Positions 10,292-32,820 of a stretch of DNA of 45,515 bases are shown here, in pieces. A model generated the notes under the pieces. That model worked only from the letters and a program-made list of their open reading frames with translations, did no database searches and was not told where the DNA came from. The position numbers and the translations under genes were made by a program. Each line of letters begins with the position of its first letter. Within the stretch, counting starts at the first letter, position 1. Source of the DNA: an uncultured Candidatus Peribacteria bacterium (lineage in GTDB: Bacteria; Patescibacteriota; Gracilibacteria; Peribacterales; Peribacteraceae); contig CAZBSN010000001.1 in NCBI GenBank assembly GCA_964494435.1, positions 1-45,515 of the forward strand. The letters run 5' to 3'.

Positions 10292-10305
10292 GCTATACTC
10301 GCACT

Positions 10306-11121: not shown

Positions 11122-11133
11122 TCCATCCTCACC

Positions 11134-11856
11134 ATGAACCTCCTCATCACCATCTGCGCCCGCGGGGGCTCCAAAGGCATTCCGGGCAAGAACGTTCGGC
11201 TCATCAACGGAACGCCGCTCATCGCCTATAGCGTGAAGCACGCTCTCGAATACGCGAAGAAGACCGGAGCGGATGTGGCTCTCACGACAGACAGTGACGA
11301 CATTAAGAAGGTTGCTGCAGATGCAGGACTTGTGACGGACTACACGCGTCCGCCAGAACTTTCGACGGACAGCGCGAGCAAGCTTGAAACAATTCGCCAC
11401 CTCGTCTTCGCGACGGAGGAGAAGAATGGAAAGAAGTACGACATGGCGCTCGATCTCGACGTCACCTCCCCTCTTCGTACAGTGGAAGATTTGGATGCAG
11501 CTCGGAAGATGATGGAAGCCCAGCCCGACGCACATAACCTCTTCTCGGTGAGCTTCCCGAAACATAACCCGTACTTCGACATGATCGAGAAGGTGGAAGG
11601 CTCCCCCTTCGTGTCCCTTGTGAAAGTGCCAGAAAAGCAGATGTCGTCGCGCCAGCAGGGACCACGTGTGTTCGAGTTGAACGCATCCTTCTACTACTAC
11701 CGCCGCATCTTCTTCGAACAAGATCCAATGATCCTCGTCCGCAACTCACTCGCATACGAAATGCCGCATATGTGCTTCGAGTTGGATGAGATGATCGACT
11801 TCAACTTCCTCGACTACGTGCTCAAGGAGAAGAAGCTCGACTTCCACTTTGCATAA
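11134..11856 (+). CDS. neuA: acylneuraminate (CMP-nonulosonate) cytidylyltransferase
   Basis: 'LITICARGGSKGIPGKNVRLINGTPLI' is the signature N-terminus of the CMP-NeuAc/CMP-Leg/CMP-Pse synthetase family. 240 aa. Confidence 0.85.
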   Translation: MNLLITICARGGSKGIPGKNVRLINGTPLIAYSVKHALEYAKKTGADVALTTDSDDIKKVAADAGLVTDYTRPPELSTDSASKLETIRHLVFATEEKNGKKYDMALDLDVTSPLRTVEDLDAARKMMEAQPDAHNLFSVSFPKHNPYFDMIEKVEGSPFVSLVKVPEKQMSSRQQGPRVFELNASFYYYRRIFFEQDPMILVRNSLAYEMPHMCFELDEMIDFNFLDYVLKEKKLDFHFA

Positions 11857-12396
11857 ATGAGCTACAAGAATGCTCGGCTGGAGTTTGAGAGTCCGCGGCT
11901 GCGACTGCACGTCATGGAGGAGCACGACGCGACCGAGCAGTACGCAAGCTGGATCAATGATCCGGAGGTGCATCGTTTTCTCGGCACGAAGAGTACGACG
12001 ATTGATGAACTGAAGGATTACATTCAGCAGCGAGATCTCAAAGAAGACGCGCTCTTCTTTGGCGTCTTCCTCAAAGAGGACGGCACACACATTGGAACGG
12101 TGAAGCTGGAACCCATTCGTGAAGTTGAAGGGCATGCGACGATCGCAGTGATGATCGGCGACAAAGCGACCTGGGGAAAAGGCTACGCGGGCGAGGCGAT
12201 GCAGATCCTCATTGATTGGTGTTTTACAGAGTTGAACCTCGATGAAGTCCGTCTAGGAGTCATCGCAAAGAACACTGCCGCGATCCGCGTCTACGAGAAA
12301 TTAGGCTTCACGGAGACGAAGCGGGAGATGGGTGCGGTCAAATATGGAGACGAAGTGCACGATCAGGTCTGGATGACGCTGAAACGACCGTCCTGA
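11857..12396 (+). CDS. GNAT N-acetyltransferase (RimJ/RimL/PseH-like)
   Basis: 179 aa. The acetyl-CoA motif region is 'WGKGYAGEAMQILIDWCF...AIRVYEKLGF'. The start directly abuts the neuA stop (TAAATG). Confidence 0.85.
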   Translation: MSYKNARLEFESPRLRLHVMEEHDATEQYASWINDPEVHRFLGTKSTTIDELKDYIQQRDLKEDALFFGVFLKEDGTHIGTVKLEPIREVEGHATIAVMIGDKATWGKGYAGEAMQILIDWCFTELNLDEVRLGVIAKNTAAIRVYEKLGFTETKREMGAVKYGDEVHDQVWMTLKRPS

Positions 12397-12435
12397 ATCT
12401 TGCTTTTCGACAGTAATCCGGCAGAGTGACGCCCT

Positions 12436-13584
12436 ATGCGACGCTGTACACGATGCGTAATGCTCGAAACGCAGGACATGATCAGCTTCGACGCGGATGG
12501 CGTCTGCGCGACCTGCCAACAGATCCAGTACAAGCAAACGAAGATCGACTGGGATGAACGGAAGCGTGAATTTGAGGAGATCGTTTCACAGACGAAAGGA
12601 AAAGGACCGTACGACTGCATCGTCCCCTTCAGCGGCGGCAAAGACAGCACGTTCACGGCTCTCGCACTCAAGCGGGATTTCGGCCTCAAGCCGCTCATCG
12701 TGAGCTTCGACCACGGCTTCTACCGACCAAACGTCTTGCGGAACAATGAACGCTCCATCAAGAAGCTTGGCGTCGATTACCTGAAGTTCAAATCGGACTG
12801 GCAAATCGTGAAGAAGCTCATGCGCGAGTCGCTCATTCGCAAAGGCGACATCATGTGGCATTCCCACTGCGGCATTTATGCCTATCCCATGCACGTCGCC
12901 GTGCAATTGAAAGTTCCGCTCCTCATTTGGGGCGAGCCGACGTCGGAGTATGTGAGTTACTACAGCTACGAAGAGAACGAACAGGTTGACGAGAAACGCT
13001 TCAACCGCGTCGTGAACCTTGGCATCAACGCCGAAGACATGGTGGGCATGCTCGACGGCAAAGTAACCGCACGCGATTTGATCCCTTATACGTATCCGAA
13101 TATCGGCGATCTGCGCGCGATTGGATACCGCTCCATTTGTCTTGGAACGTACATCCCCTGGGACACACGCACACAATCTGAACGTATTCGCACCGAACTC
13201 GGATGGCAGGGAGACAAGGTCGAAGGCATTCCCTACGAACGCTACTGGTACGAAAAGGTGGAAGACGCCTTCCAGGGCATCCAGGATTACCTCAAGTGGC
13301 TCAAGCGCGGCATGTCTCGCATGACACACTTAGCCTCGATCGACATCCGCAACGGCCGCATGACGCGCGAGGAAGGATTGAAGTTAATCGAGCAGTACGA
13401 AGGATTTAGACCGGCCAGCTTGGACGTGTTCTTGAAGGCCATCGATATGACCGACGAAGAATTCCACGAGATCGCCCTCAAGCACGTCGTGAGCCCGCAC
13501 GTCCCACCGGATTGGAGGAAGCTCCCGCGCGGCCCAGAGCTGGCGGATCAGAAGGATTGGACCATCAACATCGATCAAGAGTGA
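12436..13584 (+). CDS. N-acetyl sugar amidotransferase (PP-loop; WbuX/WbpG/PseA/PtmG family)
   Basis: An N-terminal Cys-rich ribbon 'CTRCVM...DGVCATC' is followed by the PP-loop 'VPFSGGKDST'. 382 aa. HisH/HisF paralogs follow immediately. Confidence 0.85.
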   Translation: MRRCTRCVMLETQDMISFDADGVCATCQQIQYKQTKIDWDERKREFEEIVSQTKGKGPYDCIVPFSGGKDSTFTALALKRDFGLKPLIVSFDHGFYRPNVLRNNERSIKKLGVDYLKFKSDWQIVKKLMRESLIRKGDIMWHSHCGIYAYPMHVAVQLKVPLLIWGEPTSEYVSYYSYEENEQVDEKRFNRVVNLGINAEDMVGMLDGKVTARDLIPYTYPNIGDLRAIGYRSICLGTYIPWDTRTQSERIRTELGWQGDKVEGIPYERYWYEKVEDAFQGIQDYLKWLKRGMSRMTHLASIDIRNGRMTREEGLKLIEQYEGFRPASLDVFLKAIDMTDEEFHEIALKHVVSPHVPPDWRKLPRGPELADQKDWTINIDQE

Positions 13585-13611
13585 GGTTTGGTCTCATGGT
13601 AGAGTGACCCC

Positions 13612-14232
13612 GTGATAGTGATTGTCGATTACGGCTTGGGGAACCTCTTCTCGGTGCAAAAAGCATTCGAGATGCTCGGTGCGCCGGTGAAAGTGTCCGG
13701 CGATCCTGCAGATGTCCACACAGCAGACCGCATTGTCCTGCCGGGAGTGGGAGCATTTGGGGATGGCATGGACTACTTACGCGCAAAGGGGCTCGATCGT
13801 GCGTTGACTGCGGAAGTGATGGGAAAGAAGAAACCGTTCCTCGGCATTTGCCTCGGTTTGCAACTCCTCGCTGAGATCGGGGAGGAATACGGAGAGCACC
13901 AAGGCTTCGGATGGATGAAAGGACGCGTCCGAAAGCTCGACGTCGAAAAGTTAGGACTCAAGATTCCGCACATTGGCTGGAACGAGCTGACGATGACGCG
14001 TGAATGCCCGCTCTTTGCAGGAATTCCGAAGGATGCAGATTTCTATTTCGTGCATAGCTACCAACTGGACTGTGGCGACACATCGGATCTGGTCGCAACT
14101 GCGACGTACGGAGAAACGGTGACTGCAGCCGTTCAGCGCGAGAACATCGCCGCGACGCAGTTCCACCCGGAGAAGAGCCAGGACAATGGCCTCAAGCTTC
14201 TTGAAAACTGGATCGCCTGGAACCCCGCATAA
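13612..14232 (+). CDS. hisH: HisH-like class-I glutamine amidotransferase (glycan amidation paralog)
   Basis: 'IVIVDYGLGNL', the nucleophile elbow 'GICLGLQLL', 'VHSY' and 'ATQFHPEKS'. Confidence 0.9.
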   Translation: MIVIVDYGLGNLFSVQKAFEMLGAPVKVSGDPADVHTADRIVLPGVGAFGDGMDYLRAKGLDRALTAEVMGKKKPFLGICLGLQLLAEIGEEYGEHQGFGWMKGRVRKLDVEKLGLKIPHIGWNELTMTRECPLFAGIPKDADFYFVHSYQLDCGDTSDLVATATYGETVTAAVQRENIAATQFHPEKSQDNGLKLLENWIAWNPA

Positions 14233-14234
14233 CC

Positions 14235-14993
14235 ATGCTGAAAGTCCGTCTCATTCCAACGTTGCTCCTCAAAGATGGTCGCATGATCAAGACCAAGCAA
14301 TTTGATGCATACCGCGACGTCGGCAATCCACGGACGACAGCGAAAGTGTATGACGCACAGCGTGCAGATGAATTGATCTTCCTCGATATCACCGCCACGG
14401 TGGAAAATCGTCATCTCCTTCTCGACGTCATCACCGCAGTCGCAGAAGAGTGCTTCATGCCGCTCACGGTCGGCGGAGGCATTCGGACGATCGAGCAAGC
14501 ACGCGAGCTGTTGCTGCACGGCGCGGACAAAGTAGCGATCAACACTGCTGCAGTTGAGAGACCGGAATTCATCACAGAACTCGCGAAGAAGTTCGGACGC
14601 TCAACAGTGGTGGTATCAATCGACTTCAAGAAGAACGCAGACGGCAAGAATGAAGTGTTCACACTTCGAGGAACAAAACCGACGGGTAAGGATCCGGTGA
14701 CATGGGCGAAGGAAGCAGAGACACTTGGAGCCGGAGAAATTCTCCTCACATGCATCGACCGCGAAGGGATGATGAACGGATACGACCTCGATACTCTCAA
14801 AGCGGTGACGTCGGCAGTCACTATTCCAGTCATATCTTCAGGGGGAGTGGGAACGATCCAAGATCTCGTGGATGGCATCGTCATTGGTGGAGCTTCCGCC
14901 GTATCGGCTGCGAGCATCTTCCACTTCACGGATCAGAGCATCTTCAAGGCACACTCACACATGAAGCAGAAAGGCTTATCGGTGCGGAAATAA
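14235..14993 (+). CDS. hisF: HisF-like cyclase subunit (WbuZ/AglZ/HisF2-type acetamidino-modification protein)
   Basis: 'RLIPTLLLKDGRMIKTKQF', 'DELIFLDITA', 'LTVGGGIR' and 'SSGGVG'. Confidence 0.9.
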   Translation: MLKVRLIPTLLLKDGRMIKTKQFDAYRDVGNPRTTAKVYDAQRADELIFLDITATVENRHLLLDVITAVAEECFMPLTVGGGIRTIEQARELLLHGADKVAINTAAVERPEFITELAKKFGRSTVVVSIDFKKNADGKNEVFTLRGTKPTGKDPVTWAKEAETLGAGEILLTCIDREGMMNGYDLDTLKAVTSAVTIPVISSGGVGTIQDLVDGIVIGGASAVSAASIFHFTDQSIFKAHSHMKQKGLSVRK

Positions 14994-15036
14994 TCGACCG
15001 TTTTCAGTCCTGAGAGAGGATCTGTAGACTGCGCGC

Positions 15037-16350
15037 ATGGAGAACACGGGCCAAGCGCTCTATCGGCAAGCAAAGAAGCTGATCCCCGGCGGAACACAGC
15101 TTCTCTCGAAACGTCCGGAATTTATCCTGCCGGACCTGTGGCCCGCGTACTACACGAAGGTGAAAGGCGTGGAGGTGTGGGACCTCGATGGAAAGAAGTA
15201 TGTCGATATGTTTCAGAATGGAGTGGGCACATGCGTTCTTGGTGCAGCTGACCCGGATGTGAACGCAGCGGTGATGCACGCAGTCGATAACGGTTCGATG
15301 TCGACCCTGAACAGCCCAGAGGAAGTGGAGCTAGCCGAGATTCTTTGTGAACTTCATCCATGGGCGTCTATGGTGCGCTATGCCAGATGCGGAGGAGAAG
15401 TGTTGGCGATCGCCGTCCGCATTGCTCGTGCGCACACGAAGAAGGACAAGATCGCTTTCTGCGGGTACCACGGCTGGCATGACTGGTACTTGGCAGCGAA
15501 CCTCGCAGACGATCACACGCTCGACGGTCACTTATTGCCAGGATTGGACCCAACAGGCGTTCCGCGACAGCTTGCCGGCACGGCGCTCCCCTTCCGCTTC
15601 AATCATTTGGAGGAATTGGAAGCGATCATTGAGAAACACGGCAAAGAGATTGGCACGATCGTCATGGAGCCGCTCCGCACGGCGGATCCCGCTCCCGGTT
15701 TCTTGGAAGGCGTACGCGCAATCGCTACGAAGATTGGAGCGATCCTCATCTTCGACGAAGTGACGTCCGGCTTCCGCCTCAATGCGGGCGGCGCGCATTT
15801 GCTCCTCGGCGTTGAGCCGGACATGGCCGTGTTCGCGAAGGGCATGAGCAACGGCTACCCCATGGCTGCCGTCATCGGACGAGGAGACGTGATGAACACC
15901 GCTCAAGACAGCTTCATCAGCAGCACGTACTGGACAGAGCGCATCGGCTTCGCGGCGGCGGTCGCAACAATCAAGAAATTCCGCGAGAAGAACGTGCATG
16001 AGCACCTCATTCGCATCGGCACGCTCGTGCAAGAAGGCTGGAAAAAAACCGCGGAAGAAACGGGATGCCCCGTCCACGTTAGCGGCATCGCACCACTCAG
16101 CCACTTCGGGGTTGAATGCGACGACCCGCTTGCGGCCAAGACGCTGTTTACCCAAATCCTGCTCGAAGAAGGCTTCCTTGCCGGCTCGCTTTTCTACGCC
16201 ACGTACGCTCACACGGAGGATCACGTGGAGTCCTACATGAAGGCTGTGAAGAAAGCGTTCGCAGTGATTGCGAAAGCGCTAAAGGAGGGCAACCTAAAGG
16301 CGCAACTACAAGGAGGCGTCGCGCATGCGGGCTTCTACCGCCTGGCCTGA
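15037..16350 (+). CDS. class-III PLP aminotransferase (glutamate-1-semialdehyde aminomutase-like)
   Basis: 'LIPGGTQLLSKRP', 'IFDEVTSGFR' and 'FAKGMSNGYP' (PLP lysine). 437 aa. Confidence 0.85.
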   Translation: MENTGQALYRQAKKLIPGGTQLLSKRPEFILPDLWPAYYTKVKGVEVWDLDGKKYVDMFQNGVGTCVLGAADPDVNAAVMHAVDNGSMSTLNSPEEVELAEILCELHPWASMVRYARCGGEVLAIAVRIARAHTKKDKIAFCGYHGWHDWYLAANLADDHTLDGHLLPGLDPTGVPRQLAGTALPFRFNHLEELEAIIEKHGKEIGTIVMEPLRTADPAPGFLEGVRAIATKIGAILIFDEVTSGFRLNAGGAHLLLGVEPDMAVFAKGMSNGYPMAAVIGRGDVMNTAQDSFISSTYWTERIGFAAAVATIKKFREKNVHEHLIRIGTLVQEGWKKTAEETGCPVHVSGIAPLSHFGVECDDPLAAKTLFTQILLEEGFLAGSLFYATYAHTEDHVESYMKAVKKAFAVIAKALKEGNLKAQLQGGVAHAGFYRLA

Positions 16351-16384
16351 TCATGCTATAGAATCGCTTTCTTCCTTCTTTCCC

Positions 16385-17533
16385 ATGCCTTTCAGCATCG
16401 AAAATGGCCACACGTATATCATCGCGGAAGCAGGTGTGAACCATGACGGCAACATTGAGAGGGCATACGAACTGATCGATAGTGCGGCCGATGCCGGCGC
16501 TGACGCCGTGAAGTTCCAGCTCTTCAATCCAACGGAAGTCACATCACCTGCGGCGCGGAAAGCGGAATACCAAATCGCGAACGAAGGCAAAGGTGACGAT
16601 ATCGAAAGTCAGCAGGAAATGCTCCAGCGCTTAACGCTGAAGCTTGATGATTACCGGGAGCTGAAGAAATACACAGAGAGTAAGGGCATCGACTTCATTA
16701 CAACGCCGTTCGATGCTGAGTCCGCGCGCTTCCTCGCGAGCCTCGGCGTGAAGAAGATGAAGATTCCGTCGGGTGAAGTCACCAATCTGCCATTCTTGGA
16801 ACAAGTGGCGAAGCTTGGCATTGATACGGTGATTTCAACGGGAATGTGTAATTTGGAGGACATTGATGATGCTATAGCCGTCTTCAAAAAGCACGGTACA
16901 TCGTATTCACTACTGCACTGTGTGAGCTCCTACCCCGCTCCTGCAGAGCAGATCAACCTGCGCGCGATGAACACGATGCGCGCGAAGTTCAACGTCTCGA
17001 TTGGATACTCCGATCACACAGTCGGCATCGACGCCTCGCTCGCTGCGGTCGCAATGGGAGCACAGATTATCGAAAAACACTTCACCTACGACAAGGAAGC
17101 CTCCGGTCCAGATCATGCGGCGTCACTCGAACCACAGGAATTGAAAGAGATGGTGCGGGGCATTCGCTTAGTGGAAAAAGCACGCGATCAGGAAGGTGTG
17201 AATGCACTGCAGGATGAAGCACGAATGGATCGCATTTTCCAATCATCCGAACTGAGCGGCATGGTCGATCTGGCATTGGTCAAGAAGATGCTCGGCGATG
17301 GCGTGAAGCAATGCCAGCCGTGCGAAGCGGATGTGTTGAAGATGGGGCGCAGGTCCTGCCAAGTGACGGTCGATGTAAAGAAGGGCGATGTCCTGACACG
17401 AGAGATGATCGCGATCCGCCGTCCTGCAGACGATGGGCTGCCGCCAAAAAAGATAGACGAGATTGTGGGGAAGAAAGCGGCACGGGATCTGGCTGCCAAT
17501 AGCCTCCTCAGGCAGGATGACATCGCATGGTGA
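16385..17533 (+). CDS. neuB: NeuB-family nonulosonic acid synthase, canonical paralog 2 (LegI/NeuB-like, 382 aa)
   Basis: Start ATG 16385. 'YIIAEAGVNHDGN', 'AVKFQLF', 'GYSDHTVG', 'IIEKHFT' and 'SGPDHAASL', plus a C-terminal SAF-like domain. Confidence 0.9.
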   Translation: MPFSIENGHTYIIAEAGVNHDGNIERAYELIDSAADAGADAVKFQLFNPTEVTSPAARKAEYQIANEGKGDDIESQQEMLQRLTLKLDDYRELKKYTESKGIDFITTPFDAESARFLASLGVKKMKIPSGEVTNLPFLEQVAKLGIDTVISTGMCNLEDIDDAIAVFKKHGTSYSLLHCVSSYPAPAEQINLRAMNTMRAKFNVSIGYSDHTVGIDASLAAVAMGAQIIEKHFTYDKEASGPDHAASLEPQELKEMVRGIRLVEKARDQEGVNALQDEARMDRIFQSSELSGMVDLALVKKMLGDGVKQCQPCEADVLKMGRRSCQVTVDVKKGDVLTREMIAIRRPADDGLPPKKIDEIVGKKAARDLAANSLLRQDDIAW

Positions 17534-18657
17534 AGAAAATCCTCGCTCTCACAGGCACACGGGCTGATTACGGCATTTATAAGCCTGTTTTTGACGCTAT
17601 CAAGGCATCCAAGAATTTGTCATTGGAACTGATCGTTACGGGCATGCACCTGCGACCGGAGTTCGGAAAGACTGTCGACGTCATTCACCAAGACGGCTTC
17701 AAGGTCATTGCAGAACTCAACACACTCACGACCGAAGACACTCCACGTGCAATGACGGAGTACGTCGCCCGAACACTGATGGAGATCGTGAAAGTGCTCT
17801 CGGAACATCGACCAGACATCTTCTTCATCCTCGGCGATCGCGGCGAGATGCTCGCAGGCGCGATCGCGGCGGCGGAACTGCACATCCCGATCGCTCATCT
17901 CCATGGTGGAGAGCTGACGGGCCACATCGATGATCTGGTGCGTCCCGCAATCACGCAGTTGTCACAGATCCACCTCACGACAGCCGAGCCTCACTCACAG
18001 AACGTTCAGACGATGCTCCTGCGCTCCACACCGCACATTCACACCGTCGGAGCTCCCGCGCTCGACACCGTGCGACATTTGAAGCCTGTCCCAAAAGCTG
18101 AGCTCTGTGCGGAAATGAACCTGGATCCGTCTCTCCCCGTCATTCTCTTTGTGCAGCACCCGGACACGCTTGATGCACATACGCCCGAAGCACAACTAAA
18201 GCCGTCGCTGGAAGCATTGGAACATTTTGAGGGCAACGTGATGATCGTCGGAGCGAATGCCGACGCGGGGGGTGTGCACATGAATGCGGTGCTGGAAGCT
18301 TTCGCGAAGAAGCAAAAGAATCGTGCGTTCGTTCTCTCGCTGCCACATGAACGCTTCCTCTCATGGGAAGCGGCTGCAGATGTACTCATGGGAAACTCAT
18401 CAAGCGGCATCATCGAAGCCGCATCATTCCGTTTGCCCGTCGTGAACATTGGCGAACGACAAAGAGGCAGGCTGCGCTCTGGAAACGTGCTCAATGTTCC
18501 GTATGATCGTGCAGCCATCGAGAAAGCTCTGGAAAAGGCTCTGCATGATGAAACATTCCGCGCTGAAGTCCAGGTGTGCCACAACGCCTACGGAGATGGA
18601 CGGTCTGCCGAGAAAATCGCCCAAATTTTCGAGCATTTCGAACAATACGCAGCATAA
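17527..18657 (+). CDS. neuC: UDP-N-acetylglucosamine 2-epimerase (hydrolysing), NeuC/LegG type
   Basis: 'LALTGTRADYGIYKPV', 'GDRGEMLAGAIAAAELHIPIAHLHGGE' and 'GNSSSGIIEAASFRLPVVNIGERQRGR'. The start overlaps the neuB stop (ATGGTGA). Confidence 0.9.
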   Translation: MVKKILALTGTRADYGIYKPVFDAIKASKNLSLELIVTGMHLRPEFGKTVDVIHQDGFKVIAELNTLTTEDTPRAMTEYVARTLMEIVKVLSEHRPDIFFILGDRGEMLAGAIAAAELHIPIAHLHGGELTGHIDDLVRPAITQLSQIHLTTAEPHSQNVQTMLLRSTPHIHTVGAPALDTVRHLKPVPKAELCAEMNLDPSLPVILFVQHPDTLDAHTPEAQLKPSLEALEHFEGNVMIVGANADAGGVHMNAVLEAFAKKQKNRAFVLSLPHERFLSWEAAADVLMGNSSSGIIEAASFRLPVVNIGERQRGRLRSGNVLNVPYDRAAIEKALEKALHDETFRAEVQVCHNAYGDGRSAEKIAQIFEHFEQYAA

Positions 18658-18698
18658 AGGATGTTCCATCGGATGAGCAAAACGCGTATCCTGCGCGG

Positions 18699-19331
18699 GT
18701 GGATTCCCTCCCTTCCATTGTGCTCTATGGCGCAGGCGGCCAAGGAAAAGTAGTGGCCGACTGCATCGAGCGCGCCGGAACATTTTCGATCGTCGGATTC
18801 GTCGATGACGCAACGTCGGGAGAGTTTTTTGAATATCCCATCCTGGGTGATGCATCGGCACTCCCGTCCATTTATACAAACGGCATCCGTCACGCGTTCG
18901 CATGCATTGGAGATCCGACGGCACGCCAATCCGCCGTGGAGCGACTGCACAGCGCTGGGTTCATGATCGCCACGATCCTTCATCCTTCGGCACAGTGTGG
19001 ACGAGGATCCTCGTTCGGTGAGGGAGCCGTCGTACTCCCGGCTGCCGTCATTGGACCAGATGCGATTGCAGGGATTGGATGCATCATCAACACAAGCGCG
19101 ACCGTCGACCATGATTGCGTTCTCGGTTCGTATGTGCACATCGCTCCAGGGGCGCATCTTGCCGGAGGCGTGCATGTCGGTGACCATTCATTCATTGGCA
19201 TCGGGAGCGTCGTGCGCGAAGGCATATCGATCGGTCGCAACGTCATCGTGGGCGCCGGTTCAGTCGTCGTTGAGAACCTTCCTGATGACTGCGTCGCTTT
19301 CGGAGTCCCTGCAAAACCACAATCCACGTAA
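18699..19331 (+). CDS. NeuD/PglD/LegH-family sugar N-acetyltransferase (left-handed beta-helix)
   Basis: There is no in-frame ATG, so I chose GTG 18699 (GTG 18720 is an alternative). This gives the family-typical N-terminus 'IVLYGAGGQGKVVADCIE', followed by hexapeptide repeats 'IGCIINTSATVDHDCVLGSYVHIAPGAHLAGGVHVGDHSFIGIGSVV'. Confidence 0.8.
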   Translation: MDSLPSIVLYGAGGQGKVVADCIERAGTFSIVGFVDDATSGEFFEYPILGDASALPSIYTNGIRHAFACIGDPTARQSAVERLHSAGFMIATILHPSAQCGRGSSFGEGAVVLPAAVIGPDAIAGIGCIINTSATVDHDCVLGSYVHIAPGAHLAGGVHVGDHSFIGIGSVVREGISIGRNVIVGAGSVVVENLPDDCVAFGVPAKPQST

Positions 19332-20474
19332 ATGGCACGCTTCTCCATCCCCCTCTCCCGGCCAGACATCGCCCCCGAAGACATTGAGGAGGTCGTGTCG
19401 GTTCTCCGAAGTCCGCACCTCTCGCTCGGCCCACGTCTTCCCGCATTCGAAAAGGACGTAGCGGCATTCGTCGGAACGAAGCACGCAGTCGCTGTGAGCA
19501 ACGGCACGTGCGGACTTCATCTGTGCATCCGAGCGCTTGGAATCAAAGACGGAGATGAAGTGATTACGACGCCATTCAGCTTCGTTGCATCGGCAAACTG
19601 CATCCTCTACGAACGAGCCGTGCCGGTCTTCGTCGATATTGTGAAGGACACGTACTGCATCGATCCCGTTGCAGTCGAACGCGCCATCACGCCGAAGACG
19701 AAAGCAATCGTCGCGGTGGATGTATTCGGTTACCTCTGCGATTGGGACGCGCTTCGAGCAATCGCGAAGAAGCACAACCTCGCACTGATTGAAGACAGTT
19801 GTGAGGCGCTCGGCTCAACGAAAGATGGAAAGCAAGCTGGCACATTCGCGGACTGTGCGGTGTTCGCGTTCTACCCGAATAAGCAGATGACCACAGGTGA
19901 AGGCGGCGTCATTGTGACGGATCGAGACGACATCGCACGCAGCTGCACAGTAATGCGCAACCAAGGACGCTCCCCTGACGCGGCGTGGCTCGAACACGAG
20001 GTGCTTGGATTCAACTATCGCATCAGCGACATCAACTGCGCGCTCGGCCAGAGCCAGCTCAGGAGACTTCCCAGCTTCATTGAGAAGCGGCGCCAGGTCG
20101 CAGCGTGGTACGGAGAAGAATTACAGGCATTCGGAGGAGACATTATCGCCGCCGGAGACCAAGAAGGAGTATCTATCAGTTGGTTCGTGTATGTGGCACG
20201 TCTGGCGGATAGGTTTGCGGCCACGGATCGCAACGCGCTCATCACCTTCCTGCGATCCCAGGGGATCGGCTGCAACACCTATTTCCCGGCAATCCACTTG
20301 CAGCCCTTCTACCGAGCCATGGGGCACAAAAATGGAGAATTTCCGCTCACAGAAGCCCTATCTGACCGTACACTCGCTCTCCCATTCCACACCAATCTCT
20401 CGAAAGAAGAGGTTGCAACGGTCTGCAGAACGCTGAAAGATGGGCTGTCCAGGCTTTCACAGGGCTCTCTATGA
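19332..20474 (+). CDS. DegT/DnrJ/EryC1/StrS-family sugar aminotransferase (LegC/PglE-like)
   Basis: 'IPLSRPDI', 'AVSNGTCGLHL' and 'FAFYPNKQMTTGEGG' (PLP lysine). Confidence 0.9.
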   Translation: MARFSIPLSRPDIAPEDIEEVVSVLRSPHLSLGPRLPAFEKDVAAFVGTKHAVAVSNGTCGLHLCIRALGIKDGDEVITTPFSFVASANCILYERAVPVFVDIVKDTYCIDPVAVERAITPKTKAIVAVDVFGYLCDWDALRAIAKKHNLALIEDSCEALGSTKDGKQAGTFADCAVFAFYPNKQMTTGEGGVIVTDRDDIARSCTVMRNQGRSPDAAWLEHEVLGFNYRISDINCALGQSQLRRLPSFIEKRRQVAAWYGEELQAFGGDIIAAGDQEGVSISWFVYVARLADRFAATDRNALITFLRSQGIGCNTYFPAIHLQPFYRAMGHKNGEFPLTEALSDRTLALPFHTNLSKEEVATVCRTLKDGLSRLSQGSL

Positions 20475-21523
20475 CCCCCGCATTCTTCAAAGGCAAAACA
20501 ATCTTGGTCACCGGAGCCACGGGATCAATTGGATCTGAAATTGTCCGCCAGCTCCTAAAAATGGAGCCTGCTGTCGTGCGGATCTTCTCCCGCGACGAAC
20601 ATAAGCAATTTCTCATGAGCCAGGTGCACGGCACGGGAGACGATGTCCGCTACTTCCTCGGCGACGTGCGCGATCTGCCGCGCTTAGTGCGAGCGATGGA
20701 GGGCGTTGATTATGTCTTCCACTGCGCCGCGTATAAGCACGTGCCGATGTGTGAATACAATTCCTTCGAAGCTGTGAAGACGAACGTCATTGGAACGCAG
20801 AACGTCATTGACGCGGCCAGACAGCAGAACGTGAAGCGTGTGCTCTTCATCAGCACAGACAAGGCGGCAGCTCCAAGCAATGTGATGGGTGCGACAAAGC
20901 TTCTCGCAGAGCGGCTCATCTCATCCGCGATGGAATCCGTCGGACCCCATCAAATCCTCTTCTCAACTGTTCGCTTTGGAAACGTCATTGGCTCAAGAGG
21001 ATCCGTTATTCCGACTTTCTTAGAGCAGATACGAAAGGGCGGTCCCGTGACGATCACCCATACGGAAATGACCCGTTTCTTCATGTCGATTCCAGATGCC
21101 GTGCACCTCACGTTCAACGCAATGGAACAGATGAAGGGCGGTGAAGTGTTCGTTCTGAAAATGCCCGTGTTGCGGTTGGGAGATCTGGCAGAGGAACTCA
21201 TTGAAGAACTCGCACCCCGCTTCGGACGCGAACCGGGAAAGATCGAACGGCTTGTTGTGGGCATCAGGCCCGGTGAACGCATGCACGAGACGCTCATGAC
21301 CGATGATGAAGCACAGTATGCCGAAGAAACAGACACGATGTTCATCGTGCACCCGCCCATGCTGTCGTCCTTTGGAGAGCGCGGCAAAATGACGCCCAAG
21401 AAGACCCGCAGTTACTCATCGGGAGATGCTCCTCTACTCGATCGGTCAGGCATCCGTGACCTGGTGCGAACCTTCCTTGCGTCGCTCGACGCATCAGCAG
21501 ACATCGTACGCAACACCCCATGA
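20471..21523 (+). CDS. UDP-N-acetylglucosamine 4,6-dehydratase (LegB/PseB/FlaA1/CapD-short type)
   Basis: 'KTILVTGATGSIGSEI', 'FHCAAYKHVPMCEYNSFEAVKTNVIGTQNV' and 'FISTDKAAAPSNVMGATKLLAE'. ATGA overlap with the preceding gene. Confidence 0.9.
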   Translation: MTPAFFKGKTILVTGATGSIGSEIVRQLLKMEPAVVRIFSRDEHKQFLMSQVHGTGDDVRYFLGDVRDLPRLVRAMEGVDYVFHCAAYKHVPMCEYNSFEAVKTNVIGTQNVIDAARQQNVKRVLFISTDKAAAPSNVMGATKLLAERLISSAMESVGPHQILFSTVRFGNVIGSRGSVIPTFLEQIRKGGPVTITHTEMTRFFMSIPDAVHLTFNAMEQMKGGEVFVLKMPVLRLGDLAEELIEELAPRFGREPGKIERLVVGIRPGERMHETLMTDDEAQYAEETDTMFIVHPPMLSSFGERGKMTPKKTRSYSSGDAPLLDRSGIRDLVRTFLASLDASADIVRNTP

Positions 21524-23199
21524 TGAGCATGTTCCGGCGAGTCATCCGCCTGCTTCTGCATCCGGACCAACTTCGCCGACAATCCGGGCTTTTGCTGCAG
21601 TATCTCGTGTTTCGCATGCGATACGCTTTTGTACGGGTTCACTCGGACGCGCCACCGACGGGAAAAGACGTCCTCATCGTCAATTTCACCGATTGGATGC
21701 CGCGAGCCCAAACCGAAGGCCTCCTCATGCGACATCTTCAGCAACGCGGGTACCGACCGGTCGTACTCACGAAGAGCGATTGCCATTGGTCCATGCGCAC
21801 CTATCGTCTCTTCGGCGTCGATTCATTCGTCATGATCGATGACCCTGCGTTATTCGATCCACAGGACGATGAACGCATTACATCGATCATCCGAGAGATG
21901 AAAACGCCCGACGACATTCTGCGATTCACCCTCGATGATCTGCCCATTGGCCAGAGCATTCTCTCCACTTTGATTCGAAACCTGTGCCGCCCGACTCTGG
22001 ATCTGACGGATCCTGAAGCAATCGCATTGCTCAGGAGAATTCTCCATAACGCGCTCCAATCTGCGCGCGCCATTCGCGCGTATTATGATTCAACGAACAT
22101 TGAGGCCGTCTTCTTCAATGAAATTGGATTCGTTCCTTACTCGGTGTTCTTTTTTGCAGCGTTGCATCGCCGCATCCCCGTCATTCAGTACGTGCATGCT
22201 CAACGACTGGATGCGTTCGTCTTTCATCGTCACACCGTGGAGAGAGGCATGATCGATCCCGTTCATGTGACGGAAGAAAGTTGGGAAAAGATCCTTGCTC
22301 TTCCGTGGACTGCAGCGGTGGAAGAAACATTCATGAAGGATCTAAAAAGGCACTATGAACAACGTACGTGGTTCAACCTCATGTTGTCAGAAGAGAAAAT
22401 TCATAAATCACCCGAAGAGGTGCGCAGGCAGATCGGTCTGGATCCGAACAAGAAAACCGCCGTCATCTTCACGGGAGTCGTCTGGGATGACACGTTCTTC
22501 CTCGGCAAGAACCTCTTTGAGAACTATGACCACTGGCTTGTGGAAACGCTCAAGATTGCCTGCGCAAACACGCATGTTCAGTGGGTGATCAAGCTCCATC
22601 CGGATTATCTGTGGTACACGGAAAATAAAGGCATTGCGGACAGAGATGCGCCTTTTCGCGACCTCGTTGCAGTCATGGCAAACATCGAAAAGCTGCCCGA
22701 TCATATTAAAATCGTGCCACCCGACACGGACATCAGCACGTATTCATTCTTTGCCGTTACGGATTACTGCATCACTGTGCGCGGCACCGTCGGAATTGAA
22801 TTCCCCACCTTCGGCGTGACGACGTTTGTCGCAGGGAACGGCAAATATTCGAATTTTGGCTTCACGGAGAATTCTGAAACACGCGAAGAATATCTGGAGA
22901 AGATGCGTTACATCCAAGACTGGGCTGCGTTGAGTCCTGAACGTCGAACGCTTGCTCGCAGACACGCGCATGCATTGTTCGTGCTCAGGGTCGCGCCGAC
23001 TCCCAGTATGGAACTTGTCCCTATCCGGAAGAACAAACGCGTCGTGAGCCACAAGATGGCCATGCATGCCCGGTCGGCTCGCGATCTGGATGAAGACCAG
23101 GGTTTGCGCGGCTTCGCCGAGTGGCTCCTACATTCAAAAGATGAGGATTACCTCCGTCTGCCCCAAAAGACGGCGGAAGGGTACACTTGGCCTCAATGA
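21520..23199 (+). CDS. uncharacterised 559-aa protein, KpsS/KpsC (Capsule_synth)-like. Candidate CMP-ulosonate glycosyltransferase
   Basis: ATGA overlaps at both ends. Three blocks are spaced like the conserved blocks of E. coli KpsS as I remember them: 'KKTAVIFTGVVWDDTFF' (cf. LAVLQVYNDSQI), 'VQWVIKLHPDY' (cf. LVIKHHPMDRG) and 'DYCITVRGTVGIEFPTFGV' (cf. VVTINSTAGISAL). I am confident it is a real CDS. The function is only an inference. Confidence 0.5.
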   Translation: MMSMFRRVIRLLLHPDQLRRQSGLLLQYLVFRMRYAFVRVHSDAPPTGKDVLIVNFTDWMPRAQTEGLLMRHLQQRGYRPVVLTKSDCHWSMRTYRLFGVDSFVMIDDPALFDPQDDERITSIIREMKTPDDILRFTLDDLPIGQSILSTLIRNLCRPTLDLTDPEAIALLRRILHNALQSARAIRAYYDSTNIEAVFFNEIGFVPYSVFFFAALHRRIPVIQYVHAQRLDAFVFHRHTVERGMIDPVHVTEESWEKILALPWTAAVEETFMKDLKRHYEQRTWFNLMLSEEKIHKSPEEVRRQIGLDPNKKTAVIFTGVVWDDTFFLGKNLFENYDHWLVETLKIACANTHVQWVIKLHPDYLWYTENKGIADRDAPFRDLVAVMANIEKLPDHIKIVPPDTDISTYSFFAVTDYCITVRGTVGIEFPTFGVTTFVAGNGKYSNFGFTENSETREEYLEKMRYIQDWAALSPERRTLARRHAHALFVLRVAPTPSMELVPIRKNKRVVSHKMAMHARSARDLDEDQGLRGFAEWLLHSKDEDYLRLPQKTAEGYTWPQ

Positions 23200-23828
23200 A
23201 GTCCGTTCAAGAAATCTCCCGGCTCCACGGCACGCGAGAAGTCATGATCGCGATCCTCGATTGCATCCATGGCGACGTGCTCGATTTCGGCGCGGGAAAG
23301 GGAAAACAGAAGTCTCTCGTCCTCACGGTTGCCAAGACGTACACCGCATTGGATATCGACCCGCAGCCGAATATCGACATTGTTGGAGATGCGCTCGATC
23401 CTCCGATCGCGGATGCAAGCTACGACACGGTGATCAGCAACCAAGTGCTCGAACACGTGAAACGCCCATGGATCATGGTGCAGCAGATCGCACGAATCCT
23501 GCGACCAGGCGGCACGGCCGTCATCACGGCTCCGTTCATCACTCCCTACCACGCTCACCCAAACGATTTCTTCCGCTATACCGAAGCCGGCATGCGTTCG
23601 CTCGTGGAGGACGCCGGGCTCGAGGTCGTGCTCTGCACGAAACATGGAGGATGGTGGTCGTGCGTCGGAGAAACCGTGAAGCAGAAGTACTTCAGCCCCT
23701 ACGTGAAGAAGCTCTGGATCGGCCGACGACTCGCGAACCTGTTCGAAGCGTTCTTCCTCCTGCTCGACAAGACAACTCCTCCAGGCATCGCCTACTGCAA
23801 CGTCCTCTGCATCGCTCGGAAGCCATGA
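23196..23828 (+). CDS. class-I SAM-dependent methyltransferase
   Basis: 'VLDFGAGKGK' (motif I), 'VISNQVLEHVKRP' and 'ILRPGGTAVITAPF'. ATGA overlaps at 23196-23199 and 23825-23828. Confidence 0.85.
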   Translation: MKSVQEISRLHGTREVMIAILDCIHGDVLDFGAGKGKQKSLVLTVAKTYTALDIDPQPNIDIVGDALDPPIADASYDTVISNQVLEHVKRPWIMVQQIARILRPGGTAVITAPFITPYHAHPNDFFRYTEAGMRSLVEDAGLEVVLCTKHGGWWSCVGETVKQKYFSPYVKKLWIGRRLANLFEAFFLLLDKTTPPGIAYCNVLCIARKP

Positions 23829-24985
23829 AGATCCTCGTTCTCACCGACGACCTGCCGCCTGCCGTCCTCGGCGGGTCCGGTCGCATTGCATGGGAAACGA
23901 GTCTGGGACTCGTACAACGTGGGCATGACGTGACGATCCTGACGGCCGCTCAAAGTGGTGTCTTCTCGGAGAAAAAAGATGGCGTGCACATTCGAACAAT
24001 AACGCAACTTGATCAGCGATGGGCGCACTACCGCAGCGTTTTTTCGCGAAAGCGGCAAATGGAGGTGCTGCGTGTCGTCGATGAAGTGCAACCGGACCTC
24101 ATTCATGCGCATGGACTCGCGTGGCAGCTTGGCTATCGGTGGATCAAGCCTGCAACCCAGCGCGGCATCGCGATCGTCCATACGTTCCACGGCGTCATGA
24201 ACGTCGCGTATGGAAAACGCTTCGGCGATGAAAAGTTTCCCCTCCTCCGCGATCTGAAACTTGCACGCTGGACGTATAACCCGCTGCGCAACATGAACGT
24301 CCGATGGGCGCTGCGACGGACGACGTTGCTCTCTGTGAGCAATGCACTCAAGCATTATCTCAAAAAGTATGGATATCACGGCGTGCAGACGCTCCATAAC
24401 GGCATCAACACCGATTTTTGGACCACAGGACCAGACAGAGAGACTGCACGAAAAGAGCTTGGTATAGCGGAAAATCAGCCATGTTTCTTGCTTGCTGGCC
24501 GCATTGGTCACGACAAGGGCATGACAATAGTGAAGGAGTCACTTCCCCCGAACGCACTCCTCCTCCTTGCAGGTGAAGGAAATGAAGCTTCATGGAAAGA
24601 TCTCGGTGACCGCGTGCGATTCTTCCCAAAACAGACTCCCGAACAGATGCGCACACTCTACGCAGTTGCAGACGCATCGCTTGTCCCCTCTCTCTATCTC
24701 GATCCATTCCCAACTGTGTGCTTAGAGTCGATGATGTGTGCCACACCCGTCATCGCGAGCATTCATGGTGGCGCAAAAGAAGCAGTGAAGGATGGAGAAT
24801 CCGGATGGATTGTGGAGCCGCGAAAGATGGAATCGTTCGCGGAGCACCTGCGCTGGTGTGCCACACATCGTGAGGAGACGGCACTCGTCGGGAAGAAGGC
24901 AAGAGTGCATGCCAAAGCACAATTCTCGCTGGAGAAACATCTGGATGCTCTGGAGAAGATTTACGCAGCGAGCAGTCGTTCGTAG
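23825..24985 (+). CDS. GT4-family (GT-B) glycosyltransferase
   Basis: 'MKILVLTDDLPPAVLGGSGRIAWETSLGLVQRGHDVTILT' and the E-x7-E region 'DPFPTVCLESMMCATPVIASIHGGAKEAVKDGESGWIV'. The track ORF from 23066 is an out-of-frame N-terminal artefact. Confidence 0.9.
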   Translation: MKILVLTDDLPPAVLGGSGRIAWETSLGLVQRGHDVTILTAAQSGVFSEKKDGVHIRTITQLDQRWAHYRSVFSRKRQMEVLRVVDEVQPDLIHAHGLAWQLGYRWIKPATQRGIAIVHTFHGVMNVAYGKRFGDEKFPLLRDLKLARWTYNPLRNMNVRWALRRTTLLSVSNALKHYLKKYGYHGVQTLHNGINTDFWTTGPDRETARKELGIAENQPCFLLAGRIGHDKGMTIVKESLPPNALLLLAGEGNEASWKDLGDRVRFFPKQTPEQMRTLYAVADASLVPSLYLDPFPTVCLESMMCATPVIASIHGGAKEAVKDGESGWIVEPRKMESFAEHLRWCATHREETALVGKKARVHAKAQFSLEKHLDALEKIYAASSRS

Positions 24986-32753: not shown

Positions 32754-32820
32754 ACGCACAATACCAGTGTACCGACCACATCCCATGACAACGAGGTTTT
32801 GCATCGCTAGACTCCCGGCC
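32754..32820. promoter_or_regulatory. 67-bp divergent intergenic region (presumed bidirectional promoters)
   Basis: The strand switch between the minus block (start 32753) and the plus block (start 32821) falls here. I could not identify convincing -35/-10 hexamers. Confidence 0.3.

Follow-up and report, generated by a model that had tools for sequence, protein, structure and literature searches.

Nonulosonic acids (NulOs) have been detected widely in environmental bacteria (survey, PMC8157484), and much less is known about the transferases that attach them than about the enzymes of their biosynthesis (PMC5420450). An Asp and an HP motif are the defining features of the retaining ulosonic-acid transferases (PMC12887879, PMC10148158). 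KpsC (GT107, PF05159) is a retaining beta-Kdo transferase for the linkers of group 2 capsules, with D160 as the nucleophile (PMC10148158), and WbbB (GT99) and KrkA (GT140) are retaining Kdo transferases of GT-B fold with the Asp nucleophile in a QXXXD motif and a C-terminal HP motif (PMC12887879). The HP motif, to which a role in CMP binding is ascribed, is common to KpsC, WbbB, KrkA and some sialyltransferases (PMC12887879, PMC10148158). For Capsule_synth proteins encoded beside NulO modules, a role as NulO transferases was predicted in 2014–15 (PMC4487303), and KpsS1 of Acinetobacter baumannii, ~30% identical to Escherichia coli KpsS, was shown to be a retaining Pse5Ac7Ac pseudaminyltransferase, GT118 (cited in PMC12887879).

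Gene Organization of the Locus

The window, i.e., the whole stretch of 45,515 nucleotides analysed here, contains at 21520..23199 a gene for a 559-aa GT-B-fold protein, a predicted CMP-nonulosonate glycosyltransferase (hereafter, the target). All of the features described below lie on the forward strand. The target ORF has no internal stops, and an identical protein is encoded by an independent Logan assembly. The three ATGA overlaps listed in the first-pass annotation can be read directly in the sequence: the stop codon of a 350-aa ORF (20471..21523) coincides with the target start at 21520-21523, the target stop with the start of a 210-aa ORF (23196..23828) at 23196-23199, and the stop of the latter with the start of a 386-aa ORF (23825..24985) at 23825-23828.

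Based on Pfam and NCBIfam matches, the core genes for a 5,7-diamino-NulO of the legionaminic type (16325..21523) are located directly upstream of the target. They code for a NeuB-type synthase (16325-17533), a NeuC-type hydrolysing 2-epimerase (17527-18657), a NeuD/PglD-type N-acetyltransferase (start uncertain, at 18576 or later, to 19331), a PseC/LegC-type aminotransferase (19332-20474) and, as the 350-aa ORF that overlaps the target (20471-21523), a PseB-like 4,6-dehydratase (Polysacc_synt_2). Further NulO genes occupy 9305..16350 and encode a second NeuB-family synthase (9305-10291), an SDR (10027-11121), a CTP_transf_3/PseF-like CMP-NulO synthetase that scores best against PseF (11134-11856), a PseH-like GNAT (11857-12396), WbuX (12436-13584), a WbuY-like GATase (13612-14232), WbuZ, associated with acetamidino formation (14235-14993), and a class-III aminotransferase (15037-16350). 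Together with the target, these genes indicate that the cell surface of what is likely a member of the Peribacteria (CPR) carries a legionaminic-type sugar. A fused TMD-NBD ABC exporter resembling MsbA/PglK (7452..9287) is a possible glycan flippase or exporter; an ABC exporter also adjoins the CMP synthetase in homolog locus L001, an arrangement that is not family-wide (4 of 42 loci). No other NulO-transferase candidates were found in the window, its remaining glycosyltransferases being of GT4 or GT2 type, and neither were sialyltransferase-, Maf- or TagB-like proteins.

Based on Pfam matches, the 210-aa ORF downstream of the target (23196..23828) encodes a class I SAM methyltransferase (Methyltransf_11/23) and the 386-aa ORF (23825..24985) a GT4 glycosyltransferase (Glyco_transf_4 plus Glycos_transf_1). 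The methyltransferase had been described as attached to the target; the 4-nt overlap between the two is real, but the evolutionary partner of the methyltransferase is the downstream GT4. The methyltransferase-GT4 pair is kept in loci L089 and L088, from which the target family is absent, and in L089 a methyltransferase 68% identical to that of the window is followed, with the same 4-bp overlap, by a GT4 of 53% identity. Because the pair recurs with this overlap in the absence of the KpsS-like gene, conservation ties the methyltransferase to the GT4 and not to the target gene.

The target itself gave no Pfam or NCBIfam matches even at E ≤ 10, GT2 and GT4 families included, in agreement with the earlier remark that it lacks features of these families, and its comparison with PDB sequences returned nothing above threshold. 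No hydrophobic segments were found in the protein, which is best read as soluble and cytoplasmic.

Homolog Family and Its Linkage to NulO Genes

The target belongs to a family of ~550-aa "hypothetical proteins" for which no Pfam or NCBIfam model exists. Clustered at 50% identity, the family comprises 993, 3357 and 5845 cluster representatives at E ≤ 1e-30, 1e-10 and 1e-3, respectively, i.e., about 1000 clusters at the strictest cutoff. The 213 word-indexed matches to the target share 32–49% identity over more than 90% of its length, the nearest relative being 48–49% identical. Members occur in Peribacteria/CPR, Nitrospira, Planctomycetes, Chloroflexota, Gaiellales and Acidobacteria; the 233 GTDB species found are all represented by MAGs, with no cultured organisms among them. 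Some family members consist of tandem dual modules, as in KpsC (e.g., P0304).

Conserved columns were taken from an alignment of 49 sequences (A1). It has 31 invariant columns, including D323, H360, P361, R421 and E427, all of which are kept in the target. The PF05159 Capsule_synth model was weakly matched by 34 of the 49 members at E ≤ 0.01, over Pfam positions ~138-286, and eight members checked one by one scored 24.5–29.5 bits against a gathering score of 20 bits. In these 49 relatives, no Pfam family other than Capsule_synth recurred; each of four unrelated families was matched by a single member. The proposed similarity to Capsule_synth/GT-B proteins is present at the level of profiles and structure only; the target by itself has no PF05159 match at E ≤ 10 and fails the threshold of 20 bits. 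Since its relatives match while it does not, the target falls below the threshold within a family that is itself a marginal sister of PF05159. On the best reading, this family is a deep-branching lineage in the superfamily of retaining ulosonic-acid transferases (KpsC GT107, WbbB GT99, KpsS1 GT118, KrkA GT140).

Homologs had been expected to lie near CMP-ulosonate pathways, and this was borne out. Among 42 GTDB loci with at least 8 kb on both sides, 40 contain NeuB, 37 a NeuC-like gene and 38 a CMP synthetase, with all three present in 35; loci L001-L005 each carry NeuB, a NeuC-like gene and CTP_transf_3. In 27 of 80 loci, the CMP-synthetase gene is located immediately upstream on the same strand. 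The family is therefore linked to genes for CMP-NulO synthesis, as would be expected of NulO transferases; should the transferase prediction fail, this tight linkage would need another explanation. As most of the homolog loci are limited to the NeuC/NeuB/CMP-synthetase trio, the usual donor of the family may be Neu5Ac-like rather than Leg-like.

Conserved Motifs and Predicted Structure

Three blocks with the spacing of the Capsule_synth core had been pointed out in the target: AVIFTGVVWDD (residues 314-324), VIKLHPDY (356-363) and ITVRGTVGIEFPTFG (418-432). Hhalign comparison of the family profile with an 82-sequence KpsC-N alignment (probability, 93.4%; E-value, 2.5e-7; 127 columns) placed them in register with KpsC 151-161 (the QXXXD region), the HP motif and the next strand/helix block, respectively; against a single KpsC sequence, the E-value was 1.1e-4. 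Because all three fall into the KpsC register in this profile–profile comparison, the blocks are not chance look-alikes. The family profile showed no significant similarity to E. coli KpsS (E-value, 0.11; probability, 0.5%).

The first block includes T318-G319-V-V-W322-D323-D324 (22471..22491), which corresponds to the QXXXD motif that retaining Kdo transferases carry. Asp323 (22486-22488), the predicted catalytic nucleophile, is invariant in A1 and aligned with KpsC D160, so that the nucleophile Asp of the GT99/GT107/GT118/GT140 superfamily is present in the target. The Gln of QXXXD, another feature of this superfamily, is absent, the position aligned with KpsC Q156 being occupied by Gly319 (22474-22476). 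Residue 319 is His in ~180 of 182 family sequences; one has Gln, and the target has Gly. The target is the only TGxxWDD protein among ~182 sequences and likewise the only one with Asp324. In Kdo transferases, the Gln of QXXXD binds the donor carboxylate. Since the family has His at this position and the target Gly, donor binding by the target could differ, or the protein could be impaired.

The HP motif of the superfamily is also present: H360-P361 (22597..22602), a predicted CMP-phosphate-binding element, is invariant in the 49 sequences of A1 and aligned with 'KVHPD' of KpsC. Of the motif occurrences counted in the family, 192 have HP and 17 have HA. The third block, ITVRGTVGIEFPTFG (22771..22815), forms a strand-loop-helix of the C-terminal Rossmann domain, aligns with KpsC 'VVTSQYGFEALLAGK' and contains the invariant residues T419, R421, G422, T423, G425 and E427.

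The AlphaFold (AF2) model of the target (pLDDT, 90.6; pTM, 0.89) consists of two Rossmann-like domains in a GT-B fold resembling KpsC/WbbB, as is characteristic of the superfamily. The highest Foldseek TM-scores in the PDB were obtained with KpsC (8fuw, 6mgc, 8fux and 6mgb; TMt, 0.48–0.54; 313–370 columns), and generic GT1/epimerase matches reached only ~0.3; ranked by E-value, UDP-GlcNAc 2-epimerases and GT1 enzymes came out on top, not KpsC. The N-terminal region, for which the first-pass annotation reported no recognisable features, turned out to be structured: its ~300 aa form a Rossmann-like GT-B domain (approximately residues 45-300; 21652..22419) with strands at 50-54, 79-84, 102-105, 194-199, 221-226 and 232-238 and a helical insertion at about 116-191. 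E201, Q223 and R237, conserved in the family, lie in this domain, which could not be aligned with KpsC by hhalign and is presumed to be the acceptor-binding half.

Proposed Function and Alternative Explanations

The PF05159 matches of the relatives, the hhalign register, the fold and the gene linkage support the core of the original proposal, a candidate CMP-nonulosonate transferase. We estimate at roughly 75% the probability that the target is a soluble CMP-nonulosonate glycosyltransferase of the GT-B, KpsC-related superfamily that acts with retention via an Asp323 intermediate. The enzyme would transfer a CMP-activated nonulosonic acid, made by the products of the adjacent genes, to a glycan acceptor, adding either one residue or a polymer. 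In the window, the donor would be a 5,7-diamino sugar of the legionaminic type that is probably acetamidino-modified, and transfer would presumably be to a lipid-linked oligosaccharide assembled by the cluster's many GT4 enzymes. By analogy with GT107, GT99, GT118 and GT140, the C-terminal Rossmann domain would bind CMP via H360-P361, and Asp323 would attack C2 of the donor, probably giving a covalent sugar–enzyme intermediate; an acceptor hydroxyl held by the N-terminal domain would resolve it, and the anomeric configuration would therefore be retained.

The same class of donors could also be used in an inverting single displacement like that of GT52/GT80, with Asp323 not acting as a covalent nucleophile. 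The non-conserved Gln of QXXXD (replaced by His in the family and by Gly in the target), the occurrence of the HP motif in inverting CMP-sialic-acid GT-B enzymes (PMC10148158) and the restriction of the KpsC alignment to the C-terminal half are all consistent with such chemistry. It is nevertheless considered unlikely, given that the invariant Asp323 lies exactly at the position of the KpsC nucleophile in the C-terminal domain, that neither the target nor any of the 49 relatives matches the sialyltransferase Pfam models, and that the characterised GT99, GT107, GT118 and GT140 relatives are all retaining (PMC12887879). A degenerate or neo-functionalised target copy, in which the change of His319 to Gly and the gain of Asp324 altered or abolished donor binding, would account for its being the single TGxxWDD sequence among ~182 family sequences, with a nearest relative only 48–49% identical; the retention of all 31 invariant columns and an intact ORF, assembled identically twice and joined by 4-nt overlaps to both operon neighbours, make this a rather improbable explanation.

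A true KpsC/KpsS-type beta-Kdo transferase making a Kdo linker or a Kdo-containing glycan is suggested by the nearest detectable relatives in sequence and structure, which are Kdo transferases, and the cytidylyltransferase class PF02348 comprises both the Kdo enzyme KdsB and the NulO enzymes. Yet the neighbouring genes are NeuB-type synthases (present in 40 of the 42 loci) and NeuC-type epimerases rather than KdsA/KdsD, the cytidylyltransferase of the window scores best against PseF, and among the carriers are many CPR bacteria, in which Kdo-lipid A synthesis is not expected; this assignment is very improbable. Hardly any probability was given to a non-transferase GT-B enzyme acting on nucleotide sugars, such as a UDP-GlcNAc 2-epimerase/hydrolase-like or CMP-NulO-modifying protein. 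UDP-GlcNAc 2-epimerases (1f6d, 5xvs NeuC and 3dzc) do lead the Foldseek list by E-value (~1e-8), but with TMt of ~0.3 and rmsd of 12–18 Å, compared with 0.48–0.54 for KpsC; moreover, the window already has genes for dedicated epimerases of the NeuC and WecB types, none of the 49 relatives matches the Epimerase_2 Pfam model, and the conserved D/HP register fits transferases.

With the CMP-nonulosonate transferase as the preferred reading, a hitherto unannotated family is now tied to CMP-NulO pathways, and its fold, catalytic Asp and CMP-binding motif are assigned by prediction. It is conceivable, although we hold this tentatively, that the ~550-aa proteins constitute a new CAZy-level family of retaining NulO transferases with an HxxxD...HP active site, which would use CMP-beta-Neu5Ac or CMP-beta-Leg-type donors and a covalent Asp intermediate to form beta-linked sialic or legionaminic glycosides. 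To our knowledge, every characterised sialyltransferase is inverting, and retaining chemistry is therefore essentially undescribed for sialic and legionaminic acids. If true, the family would supply the transferase so far lacking for a large part of the NulO glycome of the environment, across uncultured phyla. The family is a concrete candidate for annotation pipelines and CAZy, gives glyco-engineers further NulO transferases to draw on, and allows retention by a sialyl- or legionaminyl-transferase to be put to the test.

Comparison with Known Systems

The target resembles KpsC in the GT-B fold (best TM-scores), in the nucleophile Asp and HP motif found in register (hhalign probability, 93%) and, as predicted, in the use of a CMP-activated 2-keto-3-deoxy ulosonic acid donor. 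Identity is, however, only ~17% and over just 127 columns; KpsC has QxxxD, whereas the family has HxxxD and the target GxxxD; the family proteins are ~550 aa long with a 70-aa C-terminal extension, compared with ~325 aa per KpsC module; and KpsC is found with Kdo and kps export genes, whereas the family is found with NeuB/NeuC genes. Membership in GT107 was rejected, as only 127 C-terminal columns align and the neighbours are of NeuB/NeuC type.

WbbB and KrkA share with the family the GT-B fold, the position of the Asp nucleophile and the C-terminal HP motif, and the family, like KrkA, is too divergent for BLAST. Neither enzyme was recovered among the best 50 Foldseek matches, and both differ from the family in donor context and in the Gln position, which is not conserved in the latter. 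GT52/GT80 sialyltransferases have CMP-nonulosonate donors, the GT-B fold and the HP motif in common with the family, and TagB-like and Maf NulO transferases the CMP-nonulosonate donors; all of these are distinguished by the conserved Asp of the family in the C-terminal domain, at the position of the KpsC nucleophile. Assignment to GT38, GT42, GT52, GT80, Maf or TagB-like families was rejected, with no corresponding Pfam match for the target (E ≤ 10) or the 49 relatives.

Membership in GT118 (KpsS1) or KpsS was likewise not adopted: the family profile was insignificant against E. coli KpsS (E-value, 0.11), to which KpsS1 is ~30% identical (PMC12887879). KpsS1 and Gtr59 are clear PF05159 members, and the family is a marginal one. 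The first-pass annotation regarded the idea as uncharacterised, which applies to the family, itself unstudied, but not to the concept of a Capsule_synth-like NulO transferase. The latter is not new, being preceded by the Gtr59 prediction (PMC4487303) and by KpsS1/GT118 (PMC12887879). The target agrees with KpsS1 and with the predicted NulO transferases Gtr59 and KpsS2 in being a Capsule_synth-superfamily enzyme encoded beside a NulO module, with a CMP-NulO as the predicted donor (PMC4487303; PMC12887879).

The Target ORF and the Surrounding Nonulosonic Acid Cluster

The ORF of the target protein (21520–23199, + strand) comprises 559 codons and, upon translation, proved to be open throughout. 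Direct reading of the DNA located all three of the 4-nt ATGA overlaps described in the first-pass annotation: the start of the target is shared with a 350-aa ORF (20471–21523) at 21520–21523, its end with a 210-aa ORF (23196–23828) at 23196–23199, and the latter is joined to a 386-aa ORF (23825–24985) at 23825–23828. Based on Pfam and NCBIfam matches, these + strand neighbors encode a Polysacc_synt_2/PseB-like 4,6-dehydratase, a Methyltransf_11/23 SAM methyltransferase (MT), and a GT4 glycosyltransferase, respectively. The three peptide blocks that had been read as a KpsS/KpsC-like core are also present, at residues 314–324, 356–363 and 418–432. No hydrophobic segments are predicted in the target, and an identical protein is encoded by an independent Logan assembly (run SRR6868922).

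Every gene between positions 812 and 24985 of the window lies on the + strand. According to Pfam and NCBIfam matches, the genes directly upstream of the target make up a predicted complete pathway for a legionaminic-type 5,7-diamino-nonulosonate, including a NeuB-type synthase (16325–17533) and a NeuC-type hydrolysing 2-epimerase (17527–18657), both above the NCBIfam cutoff, a NeuD/PglD-type N-acetyltransferase (listed as 18576–19331), a PseC/LegC-type aminotransferase, and the PseB-like dehydratase named above. From its listed GTG start, the acetyltransferase ORF shares 82 nt with the NeuC-type gene, and its Pfam match starts only at residue 48; an in-frame GTG at 18699 or 18720 is more likely to be the true start. 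Further upstream are a second NeuB-family gene (9305–10291) with an SDR and a PseH-like GNAT beside it, a CMP-nonulosonate (CMP-NulO) synthetase (11134–11856; PseF is the best match), an acetamidino-forming WbuX/WbuY-like/WbuZ trio (12436–14993; WbuX and WbuZ above cutoff), a class-III aminotransferase, an MsbA/PglK-like ABC exporter, an MBOAT protein, and an AsnB-like amidotransferase (812–2629).

Two NeuB-family synthases are thus found in a single cluster; that at 16325–17533 exceeds the NeuB_NnaB cutoff, whereas that at 9305–10291 scores well below every cutoff. Because the latter is accompanied by the PseH-like GNAT and the SDR, the cluster might specify two distinct nonulosonic acids, or one that is modified. 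The presence of two separate amidotransferase systems, AsnB-like and WbuX/WbuY-like/WbuZ, suggests that the sugar is modified with an acetamidino or amide group.

The rest of the window contains genes for eight transferases of GT4 type and two of GT2 type, as well as for two unannotated polytopic membrane proteins, and no sialyltransferase-, Maf- or TagB-like enzyme was found in the window. Since the remaining transferases are of GT4 or GT2 type, the target is the sole candidate for a CMP-ulosonate-dependent transferase within 45 kb. Two adjacent minus-strand ORFs of a similar size (~550 aa), 29526–31136 and 31146–32894, were considered as paralogs of the target and ruled out by comparison. 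Their products, of 536 aa with eight hydrophobic segments and of 582 aa with six, are the polytopic membrane proteins; neither has a Pfam or NCBIfam match, and they could serve the glycan cluster as polymerase, ligase or oligosaccharyltransferase.

A Widespread Family Distantly Related to Capsule_synth

Even with the cutoff relaxed to E ≤ 10, neither Pfam nor NCBIfam gives a match to the target itself, and none of the PDB sequences was matched at better than E 0.9; the profile of its family retrieved nothing from the PDB but a chance LacI match (E 0.57). A word-indexed search yielded 213 homologs, mostly of 540–580 aa and with 32–49% identity over >90% of the length, nearly all of which are labeled "hypothetical protein". 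An exhaustive profile search of cluster representatives (50% identity) returned 993 at E ≤ 1e-30, 3357 at 1e-10, and 5845 at 1e-3. Relatives were found in 233 species when one genome per GTDB species was scanned. The 80 GTDB loci that were kept come almost throughout from MAGs, with no cultured strain among them, and their hosts include Peribacteria/Peregrinibacteria, Nitrospira, Planctomycetes, Chloroflexota, Gaiellales/Thermoleophilia, Vicinamibacterales, Omnitrophota and others; the nearest relatives of the target are those from Peribacteria/Peregrinibacteria (CPR), with 40–48% identity. One relative (42% identity) resides on a 3.3-kb contig (CAYXJU010000197.1) binned as a Bathyarchaeia archaeon, which could be either a mis-binned contig or a transfer from bacteria to archaea.

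When 49 members were each scanned alone, 34 matched Capsule_synth (PF05159) at E ≤ 0.01, and no other Pfam family recurred among the 49. Eight members scanned singly scored 24.5–29.5 bits (the gathering score is 20), always over Pfam positions ~138–286, that is, the C-terminal half. For comparison with characterized proteins, the sequences of E. coli CFT073 KpsC and KpsS were used. The family profile matched KpsC at E 1.1e-4, and a locally built KpsC-N alignment of 82 sequences with 93.4% probability and an E-value of 2.5e-7 over 127 columns (family residues 307–453 against KpsC 144–270), while KpsS was matched only at E 0.11.

The AlphaFold2 model, computed from the family alignment and of high confidence (pLDDT 90.6, pTM 0.89), consists of two Rossmann-like domains, the first of which, together with a helical insertion, is formed by the N-terminal ~300 residues, in part left uninterpreted in the first-pass annotation. 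In a Foldseek search of the PDB, E-values of ~1e-8 were obtained for many GT-B enzymes, whose TM-scores, however, were near 0.3; the clearly highest TM-scores belonged to the KpsC entries 8fuw, 6mgc, 8fux and 6mgb (E ~4e-7; target-normalised TM 0.48–0.54, rmsd 7–8 Å, 313–370 columns). The KpsS/KpsC affinity proposed in the first-pass annotation is therefore borne out by both the profile and the structure searches, although the target itself does not match PF05159. By these profile comparisons, the family is a distant relative of Capsule_synth.

Active-Site Register

Retaining Kdo transferases (WbbB of GT99, KpsC of GT107, and KrkA of GT140) are defined by two motifs of the C-terminal domain: QXXXD, whose Asp serves as the covalent nucleophile (KpsC Asp160) and whose Gln holds the carboxylate of the donor, and HP, which binds CMP (PMC10148158, PMC12887879). 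In both hhalign alignments, Asp323 of the target falls on KpsC Asp160, H360-P361 on the KpsC HP motif, and residue 319 on Gln156, this register being that of the sequence alignments. Asp323, His360 and Pro361 are invariant in an alignment of 49 sequences. The Gln position is occupied by His in ~180 of 182 family sequences ([SPAT]-H-x-x-W-D-A), by Gln in one, and by Gly in the target alone; the family signature is thus HxxxD...HP. Residues 318–324 of the target (window 22471–22491) read TGVVWDD, with Gly319 in place of the near-invariant His and Asp324 in place of Ala, a pairing unique to the target among the ~182 sequences examined. The target is an exception at a site where contact with the donor would be expected. 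All other invariant residues of the family are retained in it.

Linkage to Nonulosonic Acid Synthesis Genes

Four homologs were inspected singly, from a Peribacteria-like contig, a second CPR contig, a Vicinamibacterales MAG, and a Xenococcaceae cyanobacterium. Each of their clusters holds genes for NeuB, a NeuC-type epimerase, and a CTP_transf_3 cytidylyltransferase, and in three of the four the family gene is directly downstream of the latter. For a survey of the 80 GTDB loci, the NeuB, NeuC and CMP-synthetase sequences of five loci served as tblastn queries (E ≤ 1e-5, coverage ≥50%). Full flanks of 8 kb or more on either side are available for 42 loci; among these, NeuB was found in 40, a NeuC-type gene in 37, a CMP synthetase in 38, and all three in 35, which is the linkage that the first-pass annotation proposed to check. 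NeuB-family genes are present once or a few times per genome, and on the basis of this general copy number, the number of the 42 loci expected to have one within 20 kb by chance is well below one. The family gene directly follows the CMP-synthetase gene, in the same orientation, in 27 of the 80 loci. Where all three genes are missing, the contig is in most cases short or truncated; L054 and L077 are the only such loci that are fully flanked.

Most of the loci look like a minimal NeuC/NeuB/CMP-synthetase set, joined at times by a deacetylase, Methyltransf_24 or AsnB-like gene (the last in 15/42). A dehydratase and aminotransferase pair was found in none of the 42 locus windows under strict thresholds (E 1e-10, 60% coverage). 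Because most loci are without this set of the window, the usual donor of the family may be a Neu5Ac-like or otherwise modified NulO, the window being a Leg-type case. A search for a conserved export partner showed ABC exporters in 4/42 and Wzx in 5/42 of the fully flanked loci. In many loci (L002, L005, L024 and others), NeuC, NeuB and CMP synthetase are accompanied by a deacetylase (Polysacc_deac_1) and a Methyltransf_24 protein of ~380 aa, and sometimes by a formyltransferase, a combination that hints at N-deacetylated and re-acylated or methylated sialic acid derivatives in Peribacteria, cyanobacteria and others.

The Adjacent Methyltransferase

The first-pass annotation regarded the MT (23196–23828) as attached to the target. 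The 4-nt overlap is real, but functional coupling points downstream, since the partner of the closest MT homologs (68% and 60% identical) is a GT4, and no KpsS-like or NeuB gene lies within 8 kb of them. Both are preceded by a Wzx-like gene and followed soon after by a GT4 of ~385 aa: in locus L089 (8001–9787), the MT is 68% identical and overlaps the GT4 (53% identical to that of the window) by the same 4 nt, while in locus L088 (8001–10464) a second methyltransferase is inserted between them. The MT and GT4 of the window (to 24985) are therefore a conserved gene pair, independent of NulO genes in these two loci. Window-like MTs accompany the family in just 7/80 loci and are 4–8 kb away in four of the seven, which rules out the MT as a conserved partner. 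The 210-aa MT of locus L001 is not a counterpart either (34% identity, with a non-orthologous adjoining GT4). Fusions of family modules to methyltransferases also exist, with a C-terminal Methyltransf_11/23 domain in P0070 (32% identical to the window MT) and an N-terminal Methyltransf_24 domain in P0065 and P0091; given this low identity or the different MT families, they were not accepted as support for the partnership. Methylation is nevertheless a recurring theme in the family.

Proposed Function and Comparison with Known Systems

Starting from the fold, motif register and gene linkage found here, we infer the donor, the acceptor, the stereochemistry, and whether a single residue or a polymer is transferred. 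The target would be a cytoplasmic, probably membrane-peripheral GT-B enzyme, the C-terminal domain of which would bind, through the HP motif and Asp323, the CMP-NulO made upstream, while the divergent N-terminal domain would hold the acceptor to which the sugar is transferred. Double-displacement, retaining chemistry is most likely by analogy, because the position of the invariant Asp coincides exactly with that of the nucleophile in four families shown by experiment to be retaining. Covalent sugar adducts have been seen with the KpsC D160C and KrkA D193C variants.

The 1161-aa member P0304 contains two complete tandem modules (SHVLWDA...KVHPDY and PHILWDG...KVHPAN), which recall the dual-module architecture of KpsC, and three loci (L023, L078 and L084) carry two separate family copies. 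These arrangements hint that some members may build repeating linkages, as KpsC does.

None of the papers listed in a literature search on nonulosonic acids in CPR bacteria used the term "nonulosonic". Capsule_synth proteins encoded beside NulO modules have been proposed in print as NulO transferases for Acinetobacter Gtr59, KpsS1, KpsS2 and relatives (PMC4487303), and KpsS1, as cited in PMC12887879, has since been shown to be a retaining pseudaminyltransferase, the founder of GT118 (Walklett 2024). This kind of enzyme is thus known already. What is new is a family of ~550-aa modules that escapes Pfam and NCBIfam detection and, within the genome scan, is seen in uncultured lineages only. HxxxD replaces QxxxD in it, and it has no detectable likeness to KpsS, with likeness to GT118 judged through E. 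coli KpsS. If the family proves to be retaining for Neu5Ac- or Leg-type donors, it would be of greater interest, because its beta-linked products would be unusual.
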